Under the pieces are notes generated by a model. That model saw only the letters and a program-made list of their open reading frames with translations. It was not told the DNA's origin and did not search any database. From Felis catus (lineage: Eukaryota), in contig NC_058368.1 in assembly GCF_018350175.1 (NCBI RefSeq), positions 50,159,815 through 50,223,814 on the forward strand: 64,000 nt of DNA, read 5' to 3'. Both the position numbers and the translations under genes were made by a program. This document shows positions 18,263 through 62,373 of this stretch, in pieces (within the stretch, counting starts at the first letter, position 1; every line of letters starts with the position of its first letter).

Positions 18263-18515
18263 GTTGCGAAAGCGACACAGATTCTGAATTTTCATCCAAG
18301 ATGCAGGATTATAATAAAGACGATATGTCCTATCGAAGGATTTCAGCTATTGAACCAAAATCTGCTTTACCATTCAATCGTTTTTTACCCAACAAAAGTA
18401 GACAGCCATCCTATGTGCCAGCGCCGTTGAGGAAGAAAAAGCCGGACAAATACGAGGATAACAGAAGAAGTTGGGCAAGCCCGGTCTATGCAGAAGCGGA
18501 TGGAACATTTCCAAG
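18263..18515 (+). CDS. LMO7: LMO7 exon, 253 nt, [25 protein letters not shown]...[15 protein letters not shown]
   Basis: tttttatag|GT TGC...CCA AG|gtactg; overlaps ORF 18301..18534; phase 1 to 2. Confidence 0.95.
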
Positions 18516-18852
18516 GTACTGGGATGCGAGCTGATGGTGGAATTTTAAGATTCAGTGCACTTTGTGAATTTGCAGGGATATTTAAATGTGGGAAAAGGAA
18601 TAGTTCTTAAAATGTATTTCATAGCCCAAAAATTTCACTAATGAAAGTGCATTTTTTTTCTTACTATTATCTTTAGTCATGCATATCCTGAAGGTGTTTC
18701 TTCCCTTTTAGGATGTCAGCCTATGGTGTGTTGGTTCTTTTTTTAGATACATGCCTTTAGCTTATTGACATCTTTCAGCATATTGGATGACTTCTGCTTT
18801 TCACTGTGAGCTGTTGTTTTCTTCCATTTTTTCCCTGTTTGATTGATCTCAG

Positions 18853-19137
18853 TGGACACACAGAGAATCCTTTAATTTCCCATCAAATTAGCAAAGCAGA
18901 GTGGGATTTTTCCAATGCAGCTTCCTGTCAGAAGGAGGTGTACGGTTCTGAAAGTGGTTCGGACTCCGAGGATGAACGAAGGTTGCCTGATGTAGTTTTG
19001 GATGACTTAGCCAACCGTAGATTCCAAGTGAAAAAGAGGCCTGAGTGTTTCATCTCGAAAACCACCTCTCCTAGCTCTTATTCGCAAAGGTTTTCTCCTG
19101 CTGACCCATTAGCCACTGGGCTGTACGAGTTGACGAG
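18853..19137 (+). CDS. LMO7: Probable LMO7 cassette exon, 285 nt, (S)GHTENPLISHQ...SDSEDERRLPDVVLDDLANRRF...LYELT
   Basis: Pyrimidine tract then ctcag|T, ends ACG AG|gtcaga; open frame, phase 2-2; carries the LMO7-type PDxxxDDxxxRR motif. Confidence 0.75.
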
Positions 19138-19450
19138 GTCAGAAAAATTCTCCTAGATCAGAATGTCTGTTATGTTGATTTTAATATATAACACCCCAGA
19201 TTGTTTGCAATTTTATCTCTTTTTAACACATCTTATAATTATCTTTGGCCCTTGCATATCATGCTATCCTCTGATTAAAATGAGATGCTGTTATCATGCC
19301 TTAACTTTGTTCTAGGAGCTGTCATGATAGAGTGGCAACTAATTTGTCTCATTCAGTGATATAAACTTTGTGAGCCAGAAAGCATGCCTTTTGTGTTCTG
19401 TGTCACAAACTGCTCATTCAGTATCTTAACTGGTTGGATGTTTTGAACAG

Positions 19451-19729
19451 TAATGAGAGGAGAACTTGGGGTACCAATGTGGAGAATTGGCCAACAATAC
19501 AAGAAACTTCAAACTCCTCTTGTTACTTGGAAGAGAAAGAAGCAAAGACAAGTACACCCAACACCGTAAAGGATGATCTTTATGTGCGAAAGCTAAGTCC
19601 AATCATGCCAAACCCAGGGCATGCTTTTGATCAGTTTCTTCCCAAATGTTGGATCCCAGAAGATGTGAACTGGAAAAGAATAAAAAGAGAAACTTACAAA
19701 CCATGGTATAAAGAATTTCAGGGATTCAG
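19451..19729 (+). CDS. LMO7: LMO7 cassette exon, 279 nt, (S)NERRTWGTNVENW...YKPWYKEFQGF
   Basis: ttttgaacag|T AAT...TTC AG|gtttgt; phase 2-2; matches the long human isoform. Confidence 0.92.
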
Positions 19730-20001
19730 GTTTGTCTCTGTGCATGTTTCTGTTGTTCTAATGTTCATTCGGCACCCTGGCTGGGTGTCTTCTGTGTGTG
19801 CTTTTTACGAGAGGGAAAGAGAAAGGTTCCTTTTCCCTTTAATACCCATAGGACCTCTATCACTGAAAAAAAAATGCTGTTTAAGTTTAAACCTTAGGAT
19901 CTGGATCTTAAAAAGCCTTCTGCACGGCAGTATTTTCAGTAGTTCTAGTTTTCTCCAACTCTTTCTCCTTTCCTCCCTCCTTTCTCTGTATCACTCTACA
20001 G

Positions 20002-20205
20002 TAGGAGGAATTCAGATTCTGAGGATGAGGATTCAGGCTCTCACAGAAGCTCCTCCATTTTTAGTAGAATCCAAAAAGCAAAGCATAGGCTAGACAGCAA
20101 CTGCCAAAGACGTTCACTCTTGCTGGAACTGGCTACCAGAGGGGCCAAGAACTCCTGGGACACCCATGCAGCCAGGGGAGCCAGTGGTGCCGCGGACGAG
20201 CCCAG
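20002..20205 (+). CDS. LMO7: Probable LMO7 cassette exon, 204 nt, (S)RRNSDSEDEDSGSHRSSSIFSRIQKAKHRLDSNCQRRSLLLELATRG...AADEP
   Basis: Long pyrimidine tract (~19950-20000) then ctacag|T AGG; ends CCC AG|gtgtac; open, phase 2-2; missed by the ORF track. Confidence 0.65.
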
Positions 20206-20538
20206 GTGTACCTGTGTGCATGAGCCTGCCTGCTTTGAGTCTGGCCTGGGACATCTGTGCCAGTTTCTGCTGCTACTTTAATCTCTGACCATGATGCGCT
20301 GGGTCATGAAACCTTATAACATTTAGCATAAAAGCATAATGTATAACGTATTGCTTTCTATGGGAACATATGAGCTTGGAAGTCTATGGAATTAAATATT
20401 CTTCACAGTAATGTACAAGATAGTACATGTGGCATCGTCTGTGCTTTTGGAAAATTATTTCTAAAAAGCTTTTGTGAAAGTTGACCTAATTCTGTGGTTT
20501 TGCTATGTAAGGAGATGTGGAGAAAGGAAATAACTTTT

Positions 20539-20771
20539 TTTAAAAAGTTTTTATTTAAAAATTTTCTTTGAATGTTTATTTTTGAGAGACAGAGAGAGAC
20601 AGAGCACAAACAGGGGAGGGGCAGAAAGAGAGAGGGAGAAACTGAATCTGAAACAGGCTCCAGGCTCTGAGCTGTCAGCACAGAGCCTGACGCGGGGCTC
20701 AAACTCAGACCCTGAGATCATGACCTGAGCCAAAATCAGACGCTTAACCAACTGAGCCACCCAGGCGCTCC
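20539..20771 (-). mobile_element. CAN-SINE
   Basis: Antisense SINE body; TSD-like aaataactttt on both sides. Confidence 0.93.
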
Positions 20772-20834
20772 AGAAAATAACTTTTAGATAGACACCAGGG
20801 CGCACAAGTCTAGTGGGAAAATGCAGAGAAAAGA

Positions 20835-21059
20835 TTTTTTTTTAAAGTTTATTTATTTATTTTGAGAAAGAGAGGGAGCTGTGCATGCACGAGCAGGGGA
20901 GAGTCAGAAAGAGAGGGAAAGAGAGAGAGAATTCCAAGCAGGGTCCACGCTGTCAATGTGCAGCCCGACTCTGGGCTCGACTGCACGAACCATGAGACCA
21001 TGACCTGAGCCGAAATCTATAGTCGGACACCTAACCGACTGAGCCACCGAGGTGCCCCC
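20835..21059 (-). mobile_element. CAN-SINE (older subfamily)
   Basis: Poly-T, GA tract, ...gactgagccaccgaggtgcccc. Confidence 0.9.
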
Positions 21060-21524
21060 ATTGGGGTCTTTTTGAATGCTTCACAGCATTTTATTTTTTT
21101 AATTCTGCTGACTACCTGTGCCTATTGCATAAAGTGCTTAATGACCGACTCTTCAAAATCTGCAAGATCGCTGCTTCGCTGGGATGGGGGCTGTATCACT
21201 GTGGGTGACAGAATACGGGCAGGGTAAAAGCAAGTATGTATTCATCAGGGAGGTGTGTGCTGTCTACGTTTTAGCCCCATCAGTTGGCCTGGACAGCACC
21301 CACCTTTCTTGAGAAGCACACGCTGCATTTGCTTATTTAAATGGTATCCAAGAAAGTCACGGGTGATGGCATTAAAGGCTAGTCTTTCTCCCAAGCAAGA
21401 ATCCCTCCTGTGACTCCATGACATATTTCACCCGTGGTAACTGACTAGTTGGTCTGCTGCCTAATTACCTGTTCTACCTGAGCTTAATAAGATTCTCCCT
21501 TCCTTTTTCTTTTCTGTGCTTCAG

Positions 21525-22244
21525 TCAGTTTTTATTACTTCAGGCCCTCCAAACATATTCTGATGACATCTTGTCTTCTGAAACAAATACCAAAATTGAT
21601 CCCACTGCCGGCCCCAGGCTCATAACACGCAGAAAGAATCTCTTTTCTGCACCAGGGTATAAAAGAGATGACCTCGAGATGTCAACCCTAGACCCTGATT
21701 TAGAGAATGATGATTTCTTTGTCAGAAAGACTGGCGCTTTCCATGCAAATCCGTATGTTCTCCGGGCTTTCGAAGATCTTAGGAGGTTTTCTGAGCAAGA
21801 TGATCCTGTCGAGCGAGATATAATTCTGCAGTGTAGAGAAGGTGAACTTGTACTTCCGGATCTAGAAAAAGATGATATGGTTGTTCGCCGACTTCCAGCA
21901 CAGAAAAAAGAGGTGCCTCTGTCAGGGGCCCCAGACAGATACCAGCCAGTTCCTTTCCCTGAACCCTGGACTCTTCCTCCAGAAATTCAAGCCAAGTTTC
22001 TGTGTGTGCTTGAAAGAACACACCCATCCAAAGAAAAAAGAAAGAGCTGTAGAGTGTTAGTGCCTTCCTACCGGCAGAAGAAAGATGACCTGTTGACTCG
22101 CAAGATCCAGTCCTGGCAGCTGGGGACGACCGTGCCTCCCGTCAGCTTCATCCCTGGCCCCTGCAGTGAGGCAGACCTGCAGAGGTGGGAAGCCATCCGG
22201 GAGGCCAGCAGACTTAGGCACAAGAAACGGCTCATGGTCGAGAG
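21525..22244 (+). CDS. LMO7: LMO7 large cassette exon, 720 nt, (S)QFLLLQALQTYSDD...RHKKRLMVE
   Basis: ctgtgcttcag|T CAG...GAG AG|gtcaga; covers ORF 21571..22296; phase 2-2. Confidence 0.94.
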
Positions 22245-23200
22245 GTCAGAGTGTGTTTCTGCAAGGATGTGGCTTGTAATGGATGGTCTTGTATAACTTT
22301 TCTGTGTGAGAAAGTGGCATTGTGTTGCCCAACTCTGCATGTCACAAGCCATTTGGAAGCATCCTGCAAAAAGTTGTGTTGTTTTGAGGAACCTGTAGTG
22401 ATTTCATGGAAAAAGTGCAATTCCATATTTGCACATCTCTAAATCAGCTAGCTGAGGCCTGTTTAAAAAAGGTGTGTACATAAGCCTTGCCTTTGGCCTT
22501 AAGGAAGACTATGGTACTATTTGCAACATGATGTTTCATGAAAATGTTACATTTACAGACTTTATAGTCTCATGTCCAGGCATTTCTGAAACAGTCTGGT
22601 TGTAGTTTAGTTTTCTGTGTTTCTCATAATTTGGAATGTATGATTTCTGTGTAACCATGTCCCTTGAAATATGGCATTGCAAATTTCATTTAACTTGATT
22701 ATAATTTTTGTTTTTGACCTAGGTTCCTTGGATTGTCAATATGTGACTTTTTAAATTTCTAGTTTAAAATTGAGTGCAGACTTTATTAAATGCATGAATG
22801 TTATTTGCTGTCTGCTAAATTTTACATGTATGTAATTATGGCCATAAGGTGTCTGCATTTATGTGTTATGCAACTTGCCATTTTGATGTTCAACTTGTTC
22901 AACTTTGGGATGGACAAATGTAAGGCTGATTAAAATCACGAGATCCAAATGCAACATTTTATTCTTGACAACAGGAAGTTTTCTGTTATGGATTTGTTGG
23001 TTCAAGGTAAATTAGGAGACTGTTTATCTTGCTTAATTTGATTCCTTGAGATATGAGATCAATTAGAATTTGAGACATTAAAACGTGATAAAACTTTTTG
23101 AGTTTTGTCCATCTCAGGTTAGAATCTTAAAGTTATTGAACATTTAGAAACTAACATAACCGAAAAATGACTTTTAATTTTTGGTTTTCTGATTTCTTAG

Positions 23201-23230
23201 ACTCTTTCAAAAGATTTATGGTGAGAATGG
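23201..23230 (+). CDS. LMO7: LMO7 30-nt microexon, (R)LFQKIYGEN(G)
   Basis: gatttcttag|A CTC TTT CAA AAG ATT TAT GGT GAG AAT GG|gtaagt; phase 2-2; peptide present in human LMO7. Confidence 0.92.
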
Positions 23231-25058
23231 GTAAGTTTTTTAGTTTACCGTAAAAGAAAAAAATCTTTGCATATTGTTTGTCCTTTGTATAACATGTCGT
23301 CGCACTTCTGTCCTGGCATGTCACTAAATGCGGATGCTGTGTGCTGTGCATGTAACTTTTTAAAATGGGGATTTTTTTTCTTAATTTTACAGCTTAATGA
23401 TGATAATTCTGTATCCAAGTGTGCAGTGCATGAAGTGCTATATGACTGCAGTAGGTTTTGTGTTTATTAGAAGTTTAAAATCCAAGTTTTTTTTTTTTTT
23501 TTTTTAAATTTAAGGAGTCGATTAAAGGTAACACAATTACTTGCCTAAGATTAGATATATTTGGTTTGGTATTTGATTGCCATATAGACCAAAATTCTCA
23601 CTGCTGGATGTTGAAGCCCTAATAAAGGTGTTTTAGAAAAATCTATGATGGAAAGGAATATTAGCATTTACCTTGAAGTTGGAATTCATACAGGTGGTAT
23701 TATCTATACACTCCTAGCTTATGGAGAGGTTCATTAGTCAGGGTGGTGAATGACATTAATATTCCCTTAGTAGAATTTGGAAGTATTTTCATGATTCCTG
23801 ATTAGGGTAAAAAGTTATAATATGGCTATGTTACAGCGCCAAATCAGCTTTCCAAATCTGCAAAAATTAAAATCTTTTAAACTCTTCTGGAAATGTTTTC
23901 CTTTTCTGGAGCAATGGAGAGTTAAGAGCAAATGCTGCCATACTTTTACTGCACACTGGAGAATCATTTGTGCTCAGGGCAGGATAACCAGGTGGCTGCA
24001 TCTCAGTATTTTCCATCAGACTTGCAGTAATTTTGTGAATCTAACTGCTAATAGTTTTTTCCAACAAGAAGAAAATTTAAGTATGTCAAATATTTTAATC
24101 TGCCTAAGCCTTAGTAACTAAGTATATTCCCCTACTGGGATTTATGTCATCTCTAAAAATCTCCAGTTTTGATAGCATTGAATAATTTTTAGAGTGTAGG
24201 AATTTTGGAACTTGCTAAAATTACTGTTTAAAGCAATATAACCATTCTAGGTGTCAAAAGTGTAATTGAGCCCCGGGCAACTAATTGCAAGTACTTCTCA
24301 GCCACTGATTTTAAAAATCAGGCTTCCAGCATGCTTTCAATGGGCCATGCAAAGGCACATTATTCCCTATCCAGCTCAAGTGCTTAAAGATTTCTCACTG
24401 GTGAGGGTGAACAAGGCAATTGTCAGCATGAAGCTTAAGCATCTGCTAATCTCAGTTCACCATGGGAAAGCTGTTTTAACTGATAAAAAATCTCTGCAGC
24501 TTCAAGCATTTTGAATGAAAACTTTCAGAATTTTCATTGCTAATAAGGCTTTATAATCTAAACAGTTTGTTTTTCTGAGTATAAGAACTTGATACGAATA
24601 TAAACATGTGCAGCCATTTCAATGACTGTACATGTTCCTCCTTAGGGATACCCTGTATGACTGGGTTAAGAAAAAAGAAATGAAACCCAAATACCAAGTT
24701 TAGAAAGCTAAGGATTTTTCTGGTCTAGAGGTAGCTAGCAGCAGCAAATACCTTCTGTAGACTATTTCAAGATTGTTGCTTGTGTGGTACAGTATTTGTT
24801 TTAAAAGCCTGTTCTTCTTACAGTTTAGCGCCAAGGTTAACACAAATAAAGCAAGATTGTCTGTAAATTGAGATTGATGAAAGTAATGTGAATATGTCTT
24901 CAGAAAACTAGAGTGTGCTTTATGCCACTTGTAATCAAAATCTTTTACATGGGATTTTTTTCCCCCATGTTCTATCGGTTACCAATAATTTCCTTAAACT
25001 GATTTGCTGCGATGAAAAGAAAAAATTGGATTGAGTATAGGCATTTAATCTAGAACTT

Positions 25059-30565: not shown

Positions 30566-30683
30566 GAGCAAGTCCATGAGTGATGTCAGCGCAGACGATG
30601 TTCAGAACTTGCGTCAGCTGCGTTATGAGGAGATGCAGAAAATAAAATCACAATTAAAAGAACAAGATCAGAAATGGCAAGAT
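30566..30683 (+). CDS. LMO7: LMO7 exon, 118 nt, SKSMSDVSADDVQNLRQLRYEEMQKIKSQLKEQDQKWQD
   Basis: tttgtcgtag|G AGC...GAT|gtgagt; phase 2 to 0. Confidence 0.95.
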
Positions 30684-32887: not shown

Positions 32888-34198
32888 GTAAGAAAGCTGA
32901 GTGCATCTCATGGTTGCAGATACCAGTGTTAGAAATCCATATTTTATGTAAGTGTAGTGTGATGGAAGGTGTATGCCAATATTAAACCATAAACAGATAG
33001 ACATTCAAGTCTCAGTATGTTGCTCTGTAAAGCAAAAGCAAAGTATTGGATTAACAAAAGAAATGGGCGCTTAATATAGTGTGCTTTACTTCCTGATTTT
33101 TACATTGTATATTCACATGTGATACTGGATGGTGTTGGCTATAATTGGTGCCGAAAATAAACTACTTTTCCTCCTTTTAAAGTGAATTTAGGAATGGAGT
33201 GGCCAAATAAAACCAGGTCCCACTCTTCCAAATTGTGTAAAATATGAAGTTCCTTTTCACGTTTTAGTGGTGCGATTAAAATTATATTTTAAAAGAAGAC
33301 AATATAAACGTAAATGGGAGGGGGTGTATTTTTGGCGTTGCAACGTGACAAGATAAAGGTCCAATTTAAACTTTCCTGTAGAGCAGTTGCTGTGAGAAAC
33401 CTTGGAATATTTCTAGGTCATGGGGAAGGCAAATATGCTTTATGGATAATGTCAAAAAGGAAATGTGCTGTCAGGTGAAATTAAACAAAACTCCTTTGTG
33501 CCCTAGAAGCCAATGGTAAACACCGTTTCTTTCACTTAAAGGCAATGCAGTTTGAAAGGTATTCCCTACTAAACAGGAGTGACAAGGATGTTTCATGAAG
33601 TTCTCTATAAATATGAATGGTGTCTTTAATCTGTAACAATTGTCCATGTGAGTTCTCTCAAGCCGTGTGAAATCATATCCTAACTTGATCTTCCTGAAGT
33701 CTGAGTCCTTTGTGGAAATCATTTATTTTTACTAAATTGTTTAAAATTGTGTACAGGGAAAAAAAAAAGCTCATAATCTTGTACAGGAAGCCACATTTTT
33801 GGAAGGTTCAGATTGGTTGTAAGTTAGTTATGTCTACAGTGTGCTAATTTGGGAAGATTTATGAACTTGTGGGTAAAGCTTTGTGAAGAATCCCTTATTA
33901 AATATCTTAATTTTCTTATTAACAACTCTTTACAATTAAAAAAAAAATCCCTCTCCAGTATTTGGAAGTATTTGAGAACCTGCTTAAAAAAAAAAAAAAA
34001 GTCCAGTTCTTACAATTTTTAAGTGTGGCACTAAAAAAATCACGTGTATTTATTCTATTACCATTGTATTGGTTATTGTGTGAAGTCGGTAGCCTTTTTA
34101 TTCTTTGTCTTACGTTCTTGCCAAAGTAACCCGTGTGTCTCTACCTCCTTGTGCTAAATGCATAACTTTATGGTTACGGTGTGCTTCTTTCTGCTAAG

Positions 34199-34631
34199 GG
34201 AATCCCGAAATCAAACATCTGCAGTTGTATCAAGAAGGAGGTTGCATTCTTCTGATGATATCTTGCATGAAGAAAAGCTTTCCCCTAGACTGACCACGTC
34301 AGAAGCAAGTTACCAGAGTGAAAGAGTAGAAGAGAAGGAAACAACGTATTCTGCAGAAGTTCCTAAGCAAGATTCTACAACTTTTGCAAAAAGAGAGGAC
34401 GCTGCAGCAGCTGAAATTCAGCTATCTTCTCAGAGCCCCATGGAAGAACAACACCCAGACGCTTTGTCTTCTCAGCATTCACCGAGTACACAAACCGAGT
34501 CGACTCGAATTTCAGCCTCTCTCCCCAGAAGTTACCAGAAAACTGATACAGCCAGGTTAACATCTGTGGTCACGCCTAGACCTTTTGGCTCTCAGGCAAG
34601 GGGAATCTCATCACTCCCGAGATCCTACACG
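34199..34631 (+). CDS. LMO7: LMO7 exon, 433 nt, ESRNQTSAVVSRRR...RGISSLPRSYT
   Basis: ctttctgctaag|G GAA...ACG|gtaaaa; ORF 34158..34739; phase 2 to 0. Confidence 0.94.
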
Positions 34632-34946
34632 GTAAAAAAAAAAAAAAAAAATGTGTTCCCAGTTCATTTAGTCTGTTCTCAGGAGCACAGTGCTGGTAAA
34701 CTTATGCAGAAGTTTGAGCTCCATTTACTTGATGTATAAAATGTACATAACTTATGTATAAAGAAATTCCAGCCGGTTTAGATTCAAAAGACATTCAATG
34801 CTTAAAATATAACAACTCTGTGGAACTATTTTAAACTTTAAAGTCAATGAAAGTAAGGCTGATAACATTTTAAAGAATGAATGAGCTCTTTCTAAGGCAG
34901 AGCATTTTTTTAGTGTTATGTTTTCTCAAATACAGCTTTTGTAAAG

Positions 34947-46625: not shown

Positions 46626-47403
46626 GTAAGTTGGTTTTACCACCGTCTGGCTTTCTAAATCGGGAACTGGTTTTTGGCAAGTGGTTCTAACAGCTTGCTT
46701 CAATAACGTCTTCCTCCGTTTTTAAAAATTTTTTGGCTTCAAGATGTTTTGCGGTTATGCTGTCACAAGTCTTGAATGATACTTCCTTGACTATTCTGTC
46801 TGAAGACTTTTCACTAGCAAATTTACTGAATTTACATTATTTATCGACTGATTTACATGCTAGACTGACTTTGAATGCAAATATTAACTGGAAGCTATTG
46901 TAATTGCATCTGCATTTGGGAGTCATATAATAATGCTGAGTATTAAGAATTACGCTATGATTTTGCTTTCTCTACAGCACCATAACTAACTGGTATGAGA
47001 GAGAACATGGTAGGTCATTGGTCATGTTGCTGTTGTTCATGCTCAAGGAACTTTCAGTATATATTCTATTATTGTGTTTCTTAGCTGTTGAGGTTAGATG
47101 GAGAAGGGCATTAAGCCTCCCCCTGCCTGTTAAGGTATGATATCAAAATATGATACTCTATCCTGGCTTACAGAAAGATTCAGCAAATTTGCTAGTCTTT
47201 ACATTATTAACATCATCTAACCCTTGTGTTTTTGGAAGGTGATCTGTTGGTCAGAACACGGAACTCTTGACTTCTTTCACACACTACCTGATTTGTTTGT
47301 ATGTCTTCTACATGTTCATTTTGTATATGTACATTCAGTAACTTTGTTCTTTCCACTTCAACATTTATGTGTACTCATTTCTTGATCACCATGTGCCAAT
47401 CAG

Positions 47404-47591
47404 ACTGGGGCAGAGACCAACCTTCCCTGCCATTTACACGGCATAAAACCCTCAATCTCACCAGTATGGCTACCAAAATTATAGGTTCACCTGAAACAAA
47501 GTGGATTGATACAACTTCTGGAATTTACAACTCAGACAAATCTTCAAATCTGTCAGTAACGACTGATTTCTCGGAAAGCCTCCAGCATTCT
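47404..47591 (+). CDS. LMO7: LMO7 exon with two in-frame acceptors (47404 long, 47485 short), ...GSPETKWIDTTSG...FSESLQHS
   Basis: aatcag|AC TGG and attatag|GT TCA, 81 nt apart; donor TCT|gtaagt; phase 1 to 0. Confidence 0.9.
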
Positions 47592-48535: not shown

Positions 48536-48596
48536 AATACTGAATCCAAGGAAATAAATGGAATTCGTGATGAAAGTAATACTTTTGAATCAAAAG
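48536..48596 (+). CDS. LMO7: LMO7 exon, 61 nt, NTESKEINGIRDESNTFESK
   Basis: ctaac branch-like site, cctttccag|AAT...AAA G|gtaaac; phase 0 to 1. Confidence 0.92.
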
Positions 48597-49462
48597 GTAA
48601 ACATCACCATTGTAACTATATTTATAATATAGAAGCGCTAGCATTCAAGTTTTGCTATTATAAAAATTAATGTCAGAATAGAGGCAAAGAAAAACTGATC
48701 CCAATGCAAGTTGAAACTAAAAGGTTAGCACGCAGATCCAGTTGCAGCCAGGTGGAAAGGCATTCAGTTCCAGGGTTTGAATAGTTCAGGAACTGCAAAC
48801 AACGCTTTGGCAGCATGCCCAGCAGCTTTGAGTGCCTGTGTGTCTAAGCCAAATAAGAAAGACTGGTTTCCCGAGGCCATTAGCCTTCTTGCAATGGTAT
48901 GTTGGCAGAGGGAATCTTCGTTAAATCTGAAACGATGAATGAAGTTTCCTGCTCCCCTTTATTGTGGTGAAAAGGACAAGTTCATAGGCAGCTAGTCTTA
49001 GTAGAGCAATGGCAATAACAGTTATTAGTGAAAAGTACCCATTTGTAATGACAAGGCAGGCGTAGTATCTAGGGAGATCTTGTTTTAGGGAGTTAGTTAC
49101 TGCTCTCTTCCTCCTTCTGTCTGTTCATAAGTAATTGTCACCACATGCTATGTGCTATTCCTTAAGCATACAAAATAAGGAAGAAAGATCTGGTTCACAT
49201 AGGCAGGGAGAGAGAGACCCAAAGGAGATAAAACTCCTTTTACCATGAAGCTAAGCTCTGGTTGGGCTGGGTCTTCATAGCAGTTTGATGGCTTTGCACC
49301 TGCATTTGCCAGTTCATAATGGTCAAAGCCAAACCAAGTTTGTAAATTTCCCTTTATTGATGACTTATTTTGGTGTTAAATTTCTGATGGTTACAAGTGA
49401 CTGTGTTTTAATTGTCTGATACTGCATTCTTAATCAAAGAAGTTTTGTAAGCAAACCTAACA

Positions 49463-49677: not shown

Positions 49678-50511
49678 TAACCTGACTTATTTTTGATTTA
49701 TGATGTTAAATCCAAGATGCCCAGGTCCTATTCTACCAGTTATTCAGGCAGAGCAAACAGATAATAAGACACTGAACTTGTCATTAGTGACTGGCACTGT
49801 ATGCTGGCCTGTCATTTGAGGGGTATGTTAAGAGAAGTAAGCACCGACTAGTGTCAAGTAATAATTTCATTTACATTTTATGAATAAACAGAAGTGTAAT
49901 GATCATTTGCCATGACCTTGCAACAGATCTGTAGAAGTCAGAATGTATCTTTTCATCCTCTCTCTCTTTTTTTTTTTTTTTTTTAATCGGACTGAACTCC
50001 ATTTACTTGAAGTTAGTGGATGTTACTAGGGCAAAATACAAGAATATTTTAATTTGGGCATTTGTTTTTATTTTGTCTTTCTCTGGGTATTAATTTATTT
50101 TCTTGTCTTCCTCCCCACTATTTTTCAGTTCATTTTTTACTTAATACTGTGAAAACTTTAGTTGCAAACAATTCTCTTTGGACTTCTAGACTTTGGATTG
50201 ATTAACCTAGCAAAACATATTAATGTCCATTTCTCTAAAGCTGTGTGATCTAGCATGGGGCTTCTGTGAAACTATGATGCTATCTGCTAGAATTTATTAA
50301 TGAAATAATTAGTTCCTCTACTAATCCGAATGTAGTATAGACTTCTAAAAATATGTGTCTCTGTACATTGAAATAATCCATATCTTCCATGGCCATCAGT
50401 TTTGTCATTTTGAAACTAGTGCTGCAGACATTAGTCAAATGTTTTCCAGTGGTGAGAGATTAAAATGAATGACATGGTATTGATTTTTTTTTTTTTGTAT
50501 TTTTCAACTAG

Positions 50512-50568
50512 CATCTGAACCTATTTCTTTGAAAAACTTAAAAAGGCGATCACAATTTTTTGAACAAG
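50512..50568 (+). CDS. LMO7: LMO7 exon, 57 nt, (A)SEPISLKNLKRRSQFFEQ
   Basis: ttttcaactag|CA TCT...CAA G|gtaaac; phase 1-1. Confidence 0.93.
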
Positions 50569-52457
50569 GTAAACTACCAAACTAACAATTCATGCACTTT
50601 CATCGACTTGTTCCCATTCTCCACTCTTTCCTAGTCGTCTGTGGTGCTGGGCACTGAGCCTTTCAATTGGCTGTCATGACCAAGCAACATAACCCATTTC
50701 CATTCTTTTCCTAGGGTCGTCAGGTTTTTCTTACAGTTCATGGGTCTACCTCTGTGGTAATGGGTCTTTGCGTGTCTTTGTATACCTGTGAATTTTTTTT
50801 GGTTTTCTAATTAAAAGATTGAGATGCTGTTAAACACACACTTATTTCTTTCCACTGGGTGACAGTAAGAAATGAGGAACTTCACTTACGCCTTACTGCT
50901 TCCTACAAATTGCATACTACTAGATTACACCAACATACAATTGTTGAACATTTATAAAAACTCTAATTTTTGATTATGGACCGTGCTCTTAATAAAGAGC
51001 AGAGTTGTTTATTAGTATTGGGGTGATGGCTCTGGAGTGTTACTAGGAGTGCTCTGTGGATTCTAAAGCAAATCAAATGTAAATTTTGGTTGTACTTCCA
51101 ACAACGTGCATCTTGAGAATCACTGTGTTGGTGTAGTTGAGCAGCTCTGCCTTATGTGCTATGCGTGTGGCATTTCTTACCCCTGTCACGTCTGTCTAAC
51201 GCCCTGTCTCACGAATGCATTCCCAGCTGTGCTGTGCTATCAAGAACTTAAAAGTAATAGCCAACATTTGAGATGCAATGGCACGGAGAGTAGTGTGCTG
51301 TTGGTGTCTAAATGTTGTTGTTTCTTGCTTTTAAGATGATCAAAAATCCTTTACACACTTGTCTTACAGTATACTTCCTGGACTCATGGATTTTTTTTTT
51401 TTTTTTTTAGATCTGCTAGCCTTCCTTTGGCAAGTTAAGGTTTCTTTTTGACCATAAATAAGAATAGCTTATCAGCCATGCATGTGCAAGGTCTATTTGT
51501 GTCAGTATCCTTCGTGTTTTTGACATTTTTGTTAAATTCCTGTGTTTCTGTGGTAATTTAATTGAAACAGTGTGATACTCCTAGCCCAAACTGGCTAAAC
51601 TGAAACAATTCCTTTTCTTGCTCTGTTCTAATGTTCACTTACTTTTCTTCAACAGGCTATTTTAGGGAAGAACTTTTTCCTAAGTCTCAAAGCAGCTTTC
51701 TTAAAAAAAATGTGCGAGTGAATAAATTTACCAGACAGCTGAGGTTTCAGGAAAATTAAATAAATACTGTATGATAATGCATTTCATGAAACTTGCTTAC
51801 TTGTTTATAATCCTTGTCCTACATACAGACCCACATTTATGTAGTCCTCCTACGAATAAAAAGAGTGATACTAGGCCCATAGCCTTACACATGAAGTTGA
51901 ATATCTGTGCTTCAAGTAATAGGAGAGGGAAGGGAAGGATTTCTTGAACATGTTTTTGTGGGGTCTTATTTAAGGAAAGTTGCTTATTAGCAAGGAGACT
52001 TGGAAAATGTGATTGGGAGCTGTCACATCGTAATTGAACAGTGGCAAGTAAAATTTTTGATTTGTAGATGTTGTAACACTTGAAATTCTTTTTTTTCCCC
52101 CCTATTAGGCTGAGCTGTGAGATACTACCAAGTCTATTCATAAAAGAACCCCAAAACCTCTTTAGAACACACCATCAGTTCAGCTCTAGAAACGGGAGCT
52201 AGGGTTCACCTTTGGCATCCACAGTTTCTCTCTCTCTCTCTCTCTCTCTCTTTTTAAATGACTTTGACTTTGGGAGGTAAAAAACAAGCAGATGAAATTA
52301 AAGAGAAAAACTAAGATACTGCTGTGGTTTAAAAAAAATCGTTGATGTCCCTTAGTATACTGGCATACAAACAGCTGGTAAGACTTTCTGAAAAGAATTA
52401 TTTCACAGAAATGAAAAAACTTATTGTCTTTTTCCTTTCCCACATGCTGCAATACAG

Positions 52458-52483: not shown

Positions 52484-52764
52484 GTAAGTAGTGTTCATTT
52501 GTTTTTGGAATAAATAAGGTGACCTTGGTGGGACCGAATTAGCACCGAGTAGCATCGCTTATTTTCAGTTGCATAAGAATTTATCAAGGAGCAGTCTTTC
52601 CAAGTTGGAAAGACCTATTTTGAGATGAAAAGCCAAGCCTCCTCTGGTACTGCTTTGGCAAAGGGTGGTATGAATAATTCATGTTAGCGAGAATGCTTCA
52701 GTAGACGACTCAATGATGTCACATGTTCTTCCTTGTTTGCACATCTTCTCTTCTGACTGGTTAG

Positions 52765-52869
52765 CTTCCAGTTCCAACCCTCAGTGCCCCGAGTCGCTGG
52801 GCATGGGATCAAGAGGAGGAGCGGAAGCGGCAGGAGCGGTGGCAGAAGGAGCAGGACCGCCTTCTGCAG
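52765..52869 (+). CDS. LMO7: LMO7 exon, 105 nt, LPVPTLSAPSRWAWDQEEERKRQERWQKEQDRLLQ
   Basis: ctggttag|CTT...CAG|gtagag; phase 0-0. Confidence 0.95.
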
Positions 52870-53292
52870 GTAGAGCAGAAATATATGGGCTCCCAGGAAC
52901 TGGTCCCTGTCAACCAGCATTGTGAAGCAAATTAAAAAAAAAAAAAAACGTTAAAAGCTAATAACCTCATAATTAACAAATCTTTTGATAGGTAGCCCAT
53001 CTTGTGTTAATTACATTTCTATTTTGAAACTTTCCCAGCCCTCTTTTTAAATAATTATTTACCCCGTGTATGTTTTAGAATGAGGCACTACAGTTTTGTG
53101 GAATTCTTACATGTGGGAAGTAAGGACTTAACACCCTTTACGCTGTGTGCTTATTCTGTTGCAGAGAAATCCAGCCCCCTTGCTAGCAAGGGGCTCTAAT
53201 CAATTACAGCTGTGGTAGAGGGTGGCTATAGATTCAATTCTGAGTATCTACCCTTCCCTCAGACTGTGTTTTAATTTGATATAAGCTATTTG

Positions 53293-62291: not shown

Positions 62292-62373
62292 TGTCATGTG
62301 GCCAAGCAGAGAATCAGTGGGAGGGGACCACGCATGTCACGTGGCCAAGGAGAGAATCAGTGGGAGGGGACCA
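62292..62373. repeat. Tandem duplication, period 43, two copies, inside an MLT1-like fragment
   Basis: tgtca(t/c)gtggccaag(c/g)agagaatcagtgggaggggacca at 62292-62330 and 62335-62373. Confidence 0.9.

Follow-up and report, generated by a model that had tools for sequence, protein, structure and literature searches.

A short motif repeated across a block of symmetric cassette exons in cat LMO7

What does a block of exons that can each be left out without loss of the reading frame contribute to its protein, and how freely are such exons combined? We have studied these questions in a 64,000-nucleotide stretch of the cat genome (Felis catus, NC_058368.1, positions 50,159,815 to 50,223,814 of the forward strand), which we call the window. 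One exon of the window, denoted U, is 100% identical to Felis catus LMO7 records, which identifies the gene as cat LMO7, and LMO7 coding sequence could be mapped to the window in 24 stretches. Between U and a downstream exon W, both taken as constitutive, lie five cassette exons, A to E (Table 1). An earlier note on this DNA had described the five as a frame-neutral module, and the anatomy that it gave was borne out in full. All five exons are found at their places with the lengths listed in Table 1, each preceded by AG, followed by GT and open in frame. All are of phase 2-2 and are multiples of three nucleotides, between the phase-2 donor after position 18515 and the acceptor at 30566, and together they add 506 amino acids. 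The 9-mer GAG/GTCAGA common to the donors of A and D has no further copy in the window. A length divisible by three is found for 5/5 cassettes, compared with 2/10 among those other LMO7 exons for which both ends were mapped (Fisher p = 0.007), and each cassette exon occurs in annotated LMO7 proteins of many mammals.

The translated exons U, A, B and D have a core sequence in common, P-D-x-x-K-D-D-[LM]-x-x-R-[RK], derived from position counts over 74 units and not mentioned in the earlier note. The full isoform of 1802 amino acids contains six matches to this core, one each in U, A and B and three in D, while C and E have none. Shuffled sequence gave a maximum of two matches in 20,000 tries, for a pattern that was chosen after looking. 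Pairwise alignments of the exons scored better than shuffles in 5 of 15 pairs, namely U-A, U-B, U-D, A-D and B-D (p 0.001–0.008). The core is usually preceded by an acidic run, and the acidic lead-in, a proline and two kinds of tail (F-x-x-F-L-P or a W-containing helix) are also common to LMO7 and its sister gene LIMCH1. With a profile made from 34 LIMCH1-type units, a scan of the window in all six frames gave six domains above 0 bits and no more. Each of them lies in U, A, B or D; five of these copies scored 10.9–35.2 bits, and copy 4 scored 2.5. The number of core copies per isoform ranges from 1 to 6 over the 13 exon combinations described below (record P0003 has 1, P0009 has 6).

The repeat is old, its core being conserved between gar and mammals. 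The cores of A, B and D are 65–70% identical between cat-family and non-mammalian LMO7, compared with 18–38% outside the cores in the same exons. When exon D was searched against 1.84 billion representatives, 39 matches were returned, of which 15 were looked up. Eleven of these, each either named LMO7 or bearing a UniRef LMO7 label, came from elephant shark, gar, teleosts, lungfish, amphibians and reptiles; the other four were LIMCH1-type proteins of fish or shark, three named LIMCH1 and one an unnamed hypothetical protein. These looked-up relatives carry 3–6 cores each. In a tree of 61 units there is support for a separate vertebrate-wide clade for the copy of A, that of B and each of the three of D (D1, D2 and D3), and copy 1 groups LMO7 with LIMCH1 at 100/99. 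A DNA repeat search over positions 18500–23300 revealed no exon-to-exon likeness left in cat. Two inverted pairs around A and B were considered; they are not nested, and look like chance.

Pfam contains no model for the motif itself, no relative of it is among the solved structures, and Atlas gave no match beyond the LMO7/LIMCH1 family. Pfam gave nothing for exons A, B and C, searches of solved structures with exon D and its alignment gave chance matches only (E 0.24–0.6), and Atlas scores were all below 0.9 (DUF4757 clusters 0.81 and 0.77, bacterial clusters 0.78), and are leads at most. In the passages of the literature available to us, to which all citations here refer, we found no description of the repeat, those of PMC3305314 and PMC13607784 included; supplements and subscription papers lay outside this search.

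Does LIMCH1 carry the same unit? The reciprocal profile found 2–7 copies in each of 119 non-mammalian LIMCH1 proteins, and 545/545 domains lay between the landmarks PFN..LP and WQ..WK (118 of the 119 proteins had both). Non-mammalian LIMCH1 thus resembles LMO7 in having a long insert between the same two landmarks, with the same motif. In shark LIMCH1 models single units, of 104 or 86 residues, are left out, and in a cyprinid and a sturgeon LIMCH1 near-identical neighbouring units represent recent duplications; together these argue for exon duplication of the unit. One LIMCH1 unit has expanded in a lineage-specific manner in cyprinid, sturgeon and bowfin (P0264, P0309 and P0322).

A muscle-specific exon block has been described in mammalian LIMCH1. 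The mLIMCH1 block is an in-frame run of exons encoding 454 amino acids in mouse and 544 in human (Penna et al. 2023, PMC10052820). Its inclusion is coordinated, specific to skeletal muscle and MBNL-dependent, and it was said to have "no identifiable domains"; deletion of six LIMCH1 muscle exons led to weaker muscle, with the protein off the sarcolemma (PMC10052820). The LMO7 block resembles it as a set of in-frame exons of similar size in the paralogous gene. In contrast to the coordinated inclusion of mLIMCH1, several intermediate forms occur in LMO7 models, and LMO7 exons 9–10 have been called brain-type (PMC6052891). An N-terminal coiled-coil fragment of LIMCH1 binds the head of non-muscle myosin IIA (PMC5391182).

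Having established what the exons encode, we asked which combinations of them occur. Annotated protein models were classified by their U-to-W segment, which was possible for 291 of 300 mammalian proteins, the other nine lacking U or W. The predicted models are built from RNA-supported introns. The counts are ABCDE 94, E 59, AE 46, ABDE 24, no cassette 19, BDE 15, DE 14, BCDE 11, ABCE 3, ABE 2, AB 2, A 1 and B 1, and they are not frequencies: many records are alike in the block and diverge only in other parts of the gene, and long forms are over-represented through the exon-A query and the long-isoform clusters. Any of 32 combinations keeps the frame, as the earlier note had stated, but free use of them is not what the models contain: 13 of these combinations are present, and 16 of the 21 junctions that could occur. 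The junctions U-C, A-C, A-D, C-W and D-W are absent from the 291 models, so that at most 15 paths are allowed. C occurs together with B in 108/108 cases, and D is followed by E in 158/158. The note had named the use of only one or two fixed combinations as something that would refute it; the models contain 13, and inclusion is not all-or-none, since DE, BDE, AE and other intermediates occur.

The cat records (n = 7) show no cassette, E, DE and BCDE, and one assembly-derived protein (P0001) joins U straight to B. The AE form (46 records) is that of cetaceans (P0157–P0216), common in whale and dolphin models, and is found in none of the felid records retrieved; it may be specific to lineage or to tissue sampling. 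In axolotl and lungfish models the block is skipped entirely or reduced to E, with the same borders. Two further in-frame acceptors, not in the earlier note, are used in models of other mammals: one at 18892 in exon A (+39), used in whales, ruminants, pig and bears, and the tandem site 20002/20005 of exon C, both halves of which are used in pig models. At 18892–18897 of the window, many mammals use adjacent acceptors at +39 and +42; cat has the AG at +39, without that at +42. No model examined has an additional exon between E and 30566, and screening the E-W intron for hidden frame-neutral exons left one candidate and none with a strong donor; no model uses one. Some models start inside exon B or just upstream of A (pig P0466, P0467 and P0472; hippopotamus P0146), which hints at an internal transcription start close to the block or at truncated models.

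Several splicing events in this region of LMO7 are in print. The earlier note had described the gene as alternatively spliced and a target of RBM20, and regulation of this kind has indeed been published, knock-down of RBM20 altering exons 9–11 in human cardiomyocytes (PMC12054628). Exons 9 and 10 are reviewed as repressed by RBM20 and as marking the brain isoform (PMC6052891), exon 10 is repressed by SRSF6 in beta cells (PMC7772782), and inclusion of exon 12 is altered in type 1 myotonic dystrophy and facioscapulohumeral muscular dystrophy (PMC11940573); these exon numbers are those of the papers, and not of our A–E scheme. A 201-nucleotide exon starting RRNS has a percent-spliced-in (PSI) value of 0.695 in rat heart and 0.769 in muscle, and its knock-down mildly reduced myoblast fusion (PMC7000147). 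By inspection this is exon C, in its length, in its start and in a junction small interfering RNA that reads the end of B followed by the start of C. The same paper reports this muscle exon to be without a match in amphibians and fish (PMC7000147); in contrast, axolotl and lungfish records P0237 and P0258 have an acidic, serine-led segment after B, at the place of exon C. Human LMO7 isoform 3 is without residues 359–690, the function of which was called unknown (PMC8657913), and this gap of 332 residues corresponds by length to B plus D.

These published events (RBM20, SRSF6, the muscle exon, isoform 3 and LMO7a/b) fall in the same gene region as the cassette block, with one or two exons treated in each paper; the five-exon set, the junction rules and the repeat are not in the passages available. 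As stated, the splicing finding of the earlier note was largely known already. The splicing in itself is ordinary, and has been published in parts; the repeat is the new element.

Where does the block lie with respect to known domains? The earlier note proposed that the insert splits the conserved WQ..WK region, or DUF4757. The Pfam profile (PF15949) is indeed interrupted, with its positions 1–55 in U and 76–116 in W as two halves scoring 55.6 and 47.4 bits (curated cut-off 27); short isoforms without the block match in one stretch, and those with D in two. However, the predicted WQ..WK helix stays whole. The profile begins inside repeat copy 1, just past the DD, and the end of exon D matches its positions 20–64 weakly (E 0.0034); it misses the copies in A, B and most of D, and does not model the repeat as a repeat. 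The DUF4757 region has been reported to bind myosin II (bioRxiv 10.1101/2021.05.12.443820; 10.64898/2026.01.24.701484).

In the AlphaFold prediction for the isoform without cassettes, the part from U has a predicted local distance difference test score (pLDDT) below 50, and a confident helix at residues 81–146 holds WQ..WK. The insertion point, between residues 72 and 73, is in a low-confidence linker about eight residues before the helix. For exon D the pLDDT averages 54; short helices are predicted at two of the cores, and a confident one at the C-terminal end. The alignments used were shallow (10 and 20 rows), which makes the low pLDDT weak evidence. These predictions suggest that the block would lengthen a disordered arm, and not break a fold.

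We also examined the splice sites. The earlier note had called four of the five cassette donors non-consensus. The sequences are as it described; however, their weakness is modest by match count, the cassette donors matching the consensus 9-mer at 5–7 of 9 positions and overlapping the other donors at 5–8, with the constitutive upstream donor itself at 5. What distinguishes them is a pyrimidine at +3, found in 3/5 cassette donors and 0/14 other donors (p = 0.01); the comparison comes from 23 junctions tried, of which two failed to map and two poor matches were dropped (one of these with a +3 pyrimidine), and some of the 14 may themselves be alternative. In read-through fragments from other vertebrates, Ser or Leu follows D in 10/10 that match the pattern (29 examined), and Arg-Ser-Glu follows A in 2/2. 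To judge from these fragments, the unusual +3 base would be conserved.

The hexamer TGCATG follows the donors of B, C, D and E at distances of 12, 12, 92 and 117 nt. It is present within 250 nt downstream of 4/5 cassette donors and 0/14 other donors (p = 0.0013, for a motif picked after looking), with seven copies in 2817 intronic bases where 1.4 are expected. We take TGCATG to be an RBFOX element. Such elements enhance inclusion from a downstream position. Enrichment of UCUU is not significant, with seven copies in the U-A intron against 3.7 expected (p = 0.065) and none in the A-B or B-C intron; YGCY, a QKI-type and a UG-rich motif gave nothing clear.

The conclusion that we favour, and consider fairly probable, is that a regulated, partly nested exon block sets the copy number of a conserved docking motif beside a myosin-binding helix. 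An ancient block of symmetric cassette exons would have arisen by exon duplication of a short unit. Gene models and papers support a restricted and partly nested exon use (none, E, DE, BDE, BCDE, ABDE, ABCDE and a few more) under the control of RBM20 and SRSF6, and weak donors with a +3 pyrimidine, together with downstream TGCATG, may allow the block to be switched on by factors of muscle and neuron type. Each copy would be a putative short docking motif in a disordered chain, so that inclusion could raise avidity for one repeating cytoskeletal partner and shift where, and how tightly, LMO7 binds. The likeliest candidate for this partner is perhaps the myosin II head or the actomyosin filament, to which we would give slightly less than an even chance. 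Short repeat arrays tuned by splicing or by isoform are known in other cytoskeletal proteins, such as tau 3R/4R, the PEVK exons of titin, the repeats of nebulin, and the DFRxxL repeats of long and short MLCK. The LMO7 block is like these in outline, with symmetric exons varying the number of motifs in a disordered chain; it is unlike them in that filament binding by its motif is putative, and no sequence likeness to a Pfam family, solved structure or Atlas cluster was found outside LMO7/LIMCH1. Joined into one proposal, an undescribed LMO7/LIMCH1 docking motif present in 1–6 (up to 7) copies by tissue splicing would provide multivalent actomyosin or sarcolemmal binding, explain the weakness of the LIMCH1 six-exon knockout, act as a downstream effector of RBM20/MBNL mis-splicing and account for the binding ascribed to the LMO7 "F-box". 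That whole is possible, but on balance doubtful.

Could the exons instead be chosen independently, giving up to 32 isoforms that tune the length of the insert? All 32 keep the frame, the 13 combinations seen include A alone, B alone, AE, ABE and ABCE, and exon C is separately regulated in muscle (PMC7000147). Yet 5 of the 21 junctions never occur in the models, C and D are tied to B and E without exception, human isoforms lose the residues of B plus D (by length) as one piece (PMC8657913), and inclusion of the paralogous LIMCH1 block is coordinated (PMC10052820). Free combination is therefore very unlikely in our view. Another possibility is that the block is a disordered spacer or on/off switch, parting the halves of DUF4757 and so dampening myosin II binding, with the repeat a relic of duplication that has no binding role. 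This would fit the division of the DUF4757 match in isoforms with D, the low confidence of most of exon D in AlphaFold, the loss of likeness between the exons in DNA and a remark in a preprint that DUF4757 is disrupted in some splice variants. However, the cores are far better conserved than their flanks across bony vertebrates, unlike a relic; the insertion point falls in a predicted linker that leaves the WQ..WK helix whole; and the weak match at the end of D indicates that a unit precedes the helix in long isoforms too. We regard the spacer as unlikely.

A further explanation places an F-box in exon D, inclusion of which would make LMO7 an adaptor of an SCF-type ubiquitin ligase. A rat "F-box" fragment that pulled down paxillin (PMC3757464) maps inside D, the L-P at the start of this stretch is invariant in 10/10 aligned rows, and binding of SKP1 by one LMO7 isoform has been reported second-hand. 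Moreover LMO7b, which is without the region and serves as an F-box deletion, neither binds nor ubiquitinates MGMT (PMC13022618). The sequence itself argues otherwise. The Pfam F-box matched 0/10 exon-D sequences at E up to 10 and none of the full isoforms at E 0.1, in agreement with PMC3984280, according to which LMO7 was also missed by a genome-wide F-box survey, and no F-box chain was among the solved-structure matches. Conservation is poor midway along the stretch, the core of repeat copy 6 forms its end, and only one short helix is predicted in it. Such an activity would, moreover, leave A, B, C and the LIMCH1 block unexplained. We consider such an F-box switch improbable.

A number of points weigh against the reading that we prefer, in which splicing sets the number of docking motifs. 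That the motif binds any partner is something that we infer, and the repeat is not the main known interface, since mutating WQ..WK in the downstream helix abolishes myosin binding. RBM20 is said to repress exons 9–10 in heart (PMC6052891), yet exon C, which depends on B, has a PSI of 0.70 in rat heart. Copy 4 scores only 6.2 bits in the protein, level with the best of 201 controls (6.5); its orthologues score 11.8–18.9 bits with the LIMCH1-unit profile. The core match is partly circular, because the pattern from which each of the two profiles was started had been noticed in LMO7 to begin with. The cassette copies of LMO7 and LIMCH1 cannot be paired one to one, the deeper forks of the tree (of 52 columns) being open, and it is through birds, turtles, coelacanth, sharks and fishes that the repeat is linked to the six-exon block of mouse, as no mammalian long LIMCH1 isoform was retrieved. 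The combination counts come from predicted models that are non-independent and enriched by our queries, 291 models as against 1719 matches in the first search alone, and TGCATG was one of five motifs tried.

The repeat gives a first sequence handle on the region missing from human LMO7 isoform 3, with its "function unknown" (PMC8657913), and on the mLIMCH1 muscle block with its "no identifiable domains"; mice that lose this block are weaker, and its splicing goes wrong in myotonic dystrophy. In each copy, two or four residues could be changed at constant length, so that the choice between spacer and binding site is directly testable. It also bears on the use of LMO7b as an F-box deletion control, as this isoform is probably without several copies of the repeat as well. 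The features of the block are collected in Table 1.

Table 1. Exons and sequence elements of the LMO7 cassette block (positions in the window)
Feature	Position	Strand	Description
Exon U	18263..18515	+	253 nt, of phase 1-2; assumed to be constitutive; encodes the N-terminal half of DUF4757; core of repeat copy 1 at 18304-18339
Cassette exon A	18853..19137	+	285 nt; core of repeat copy 2 at 18986-19021; second in-frame acceptor at 18892; donor GAG/GTCAGA
Cassette exon B	19451..19729	+	279 nt; core of repeat copy 3 at 19557-19592; F-x-x-F-L-P tail resembling copy 1; donor CAG/GTTTGT
Cassette exon C	20002..20205	+	204 or 201 nt, depending on the tandem acceptor 20002/20005; without a repeat core; rich in serine, with RRNS at its start; donor CAG/GTGTAC
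Cassette exon D	21525..22244	+	720 nt; repeat copies 4-6, cores at 21694-21729, 21856-21891 and 22069-22104; ends in a confidently predicted helix; donor GAG/GTCAGA
Cassette micro-exon E	23201..23230	+	30 nt; strong donor TGG/GTAAGT; present in every model having D or C
Exon W	30566..30683	+	118 nt; assumed to be constitutive; first part of the long helix that bears the WQ..WK motif for myosin II binding
Stretch of exon D matching the rat "F-box" fragment (PMC3757464, primers read by hand)	21973..22098	+	overlaps the core of copy 6; no Pfam F-box match
TGCATG hexamers	19741, 20217, 20882, 22336, 22791, 23347, 23427	+	two follow the B and C donors at a distance of exactly 12 nt

Some further features of the window lie outside the cassettes. 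The 3′ half of LMO7 contains more alternative donors, acceptors and small exons that differ between cat-family models, at 34197–34673, 47397–47591, 48536–48598, 50511–50758 and 52726–52899. Within the C-D intron, two similar copies resembling a short interspersed repeat (20525–20771 and 20827–21058) lie in the same orientation, the TGCATG at 20882 falling within the second; presumably these are a carnivore short interspersed element. Finally, an intronic 43-nucleotide unit is present in 1.9 copies (94% match) at 62292–62373.

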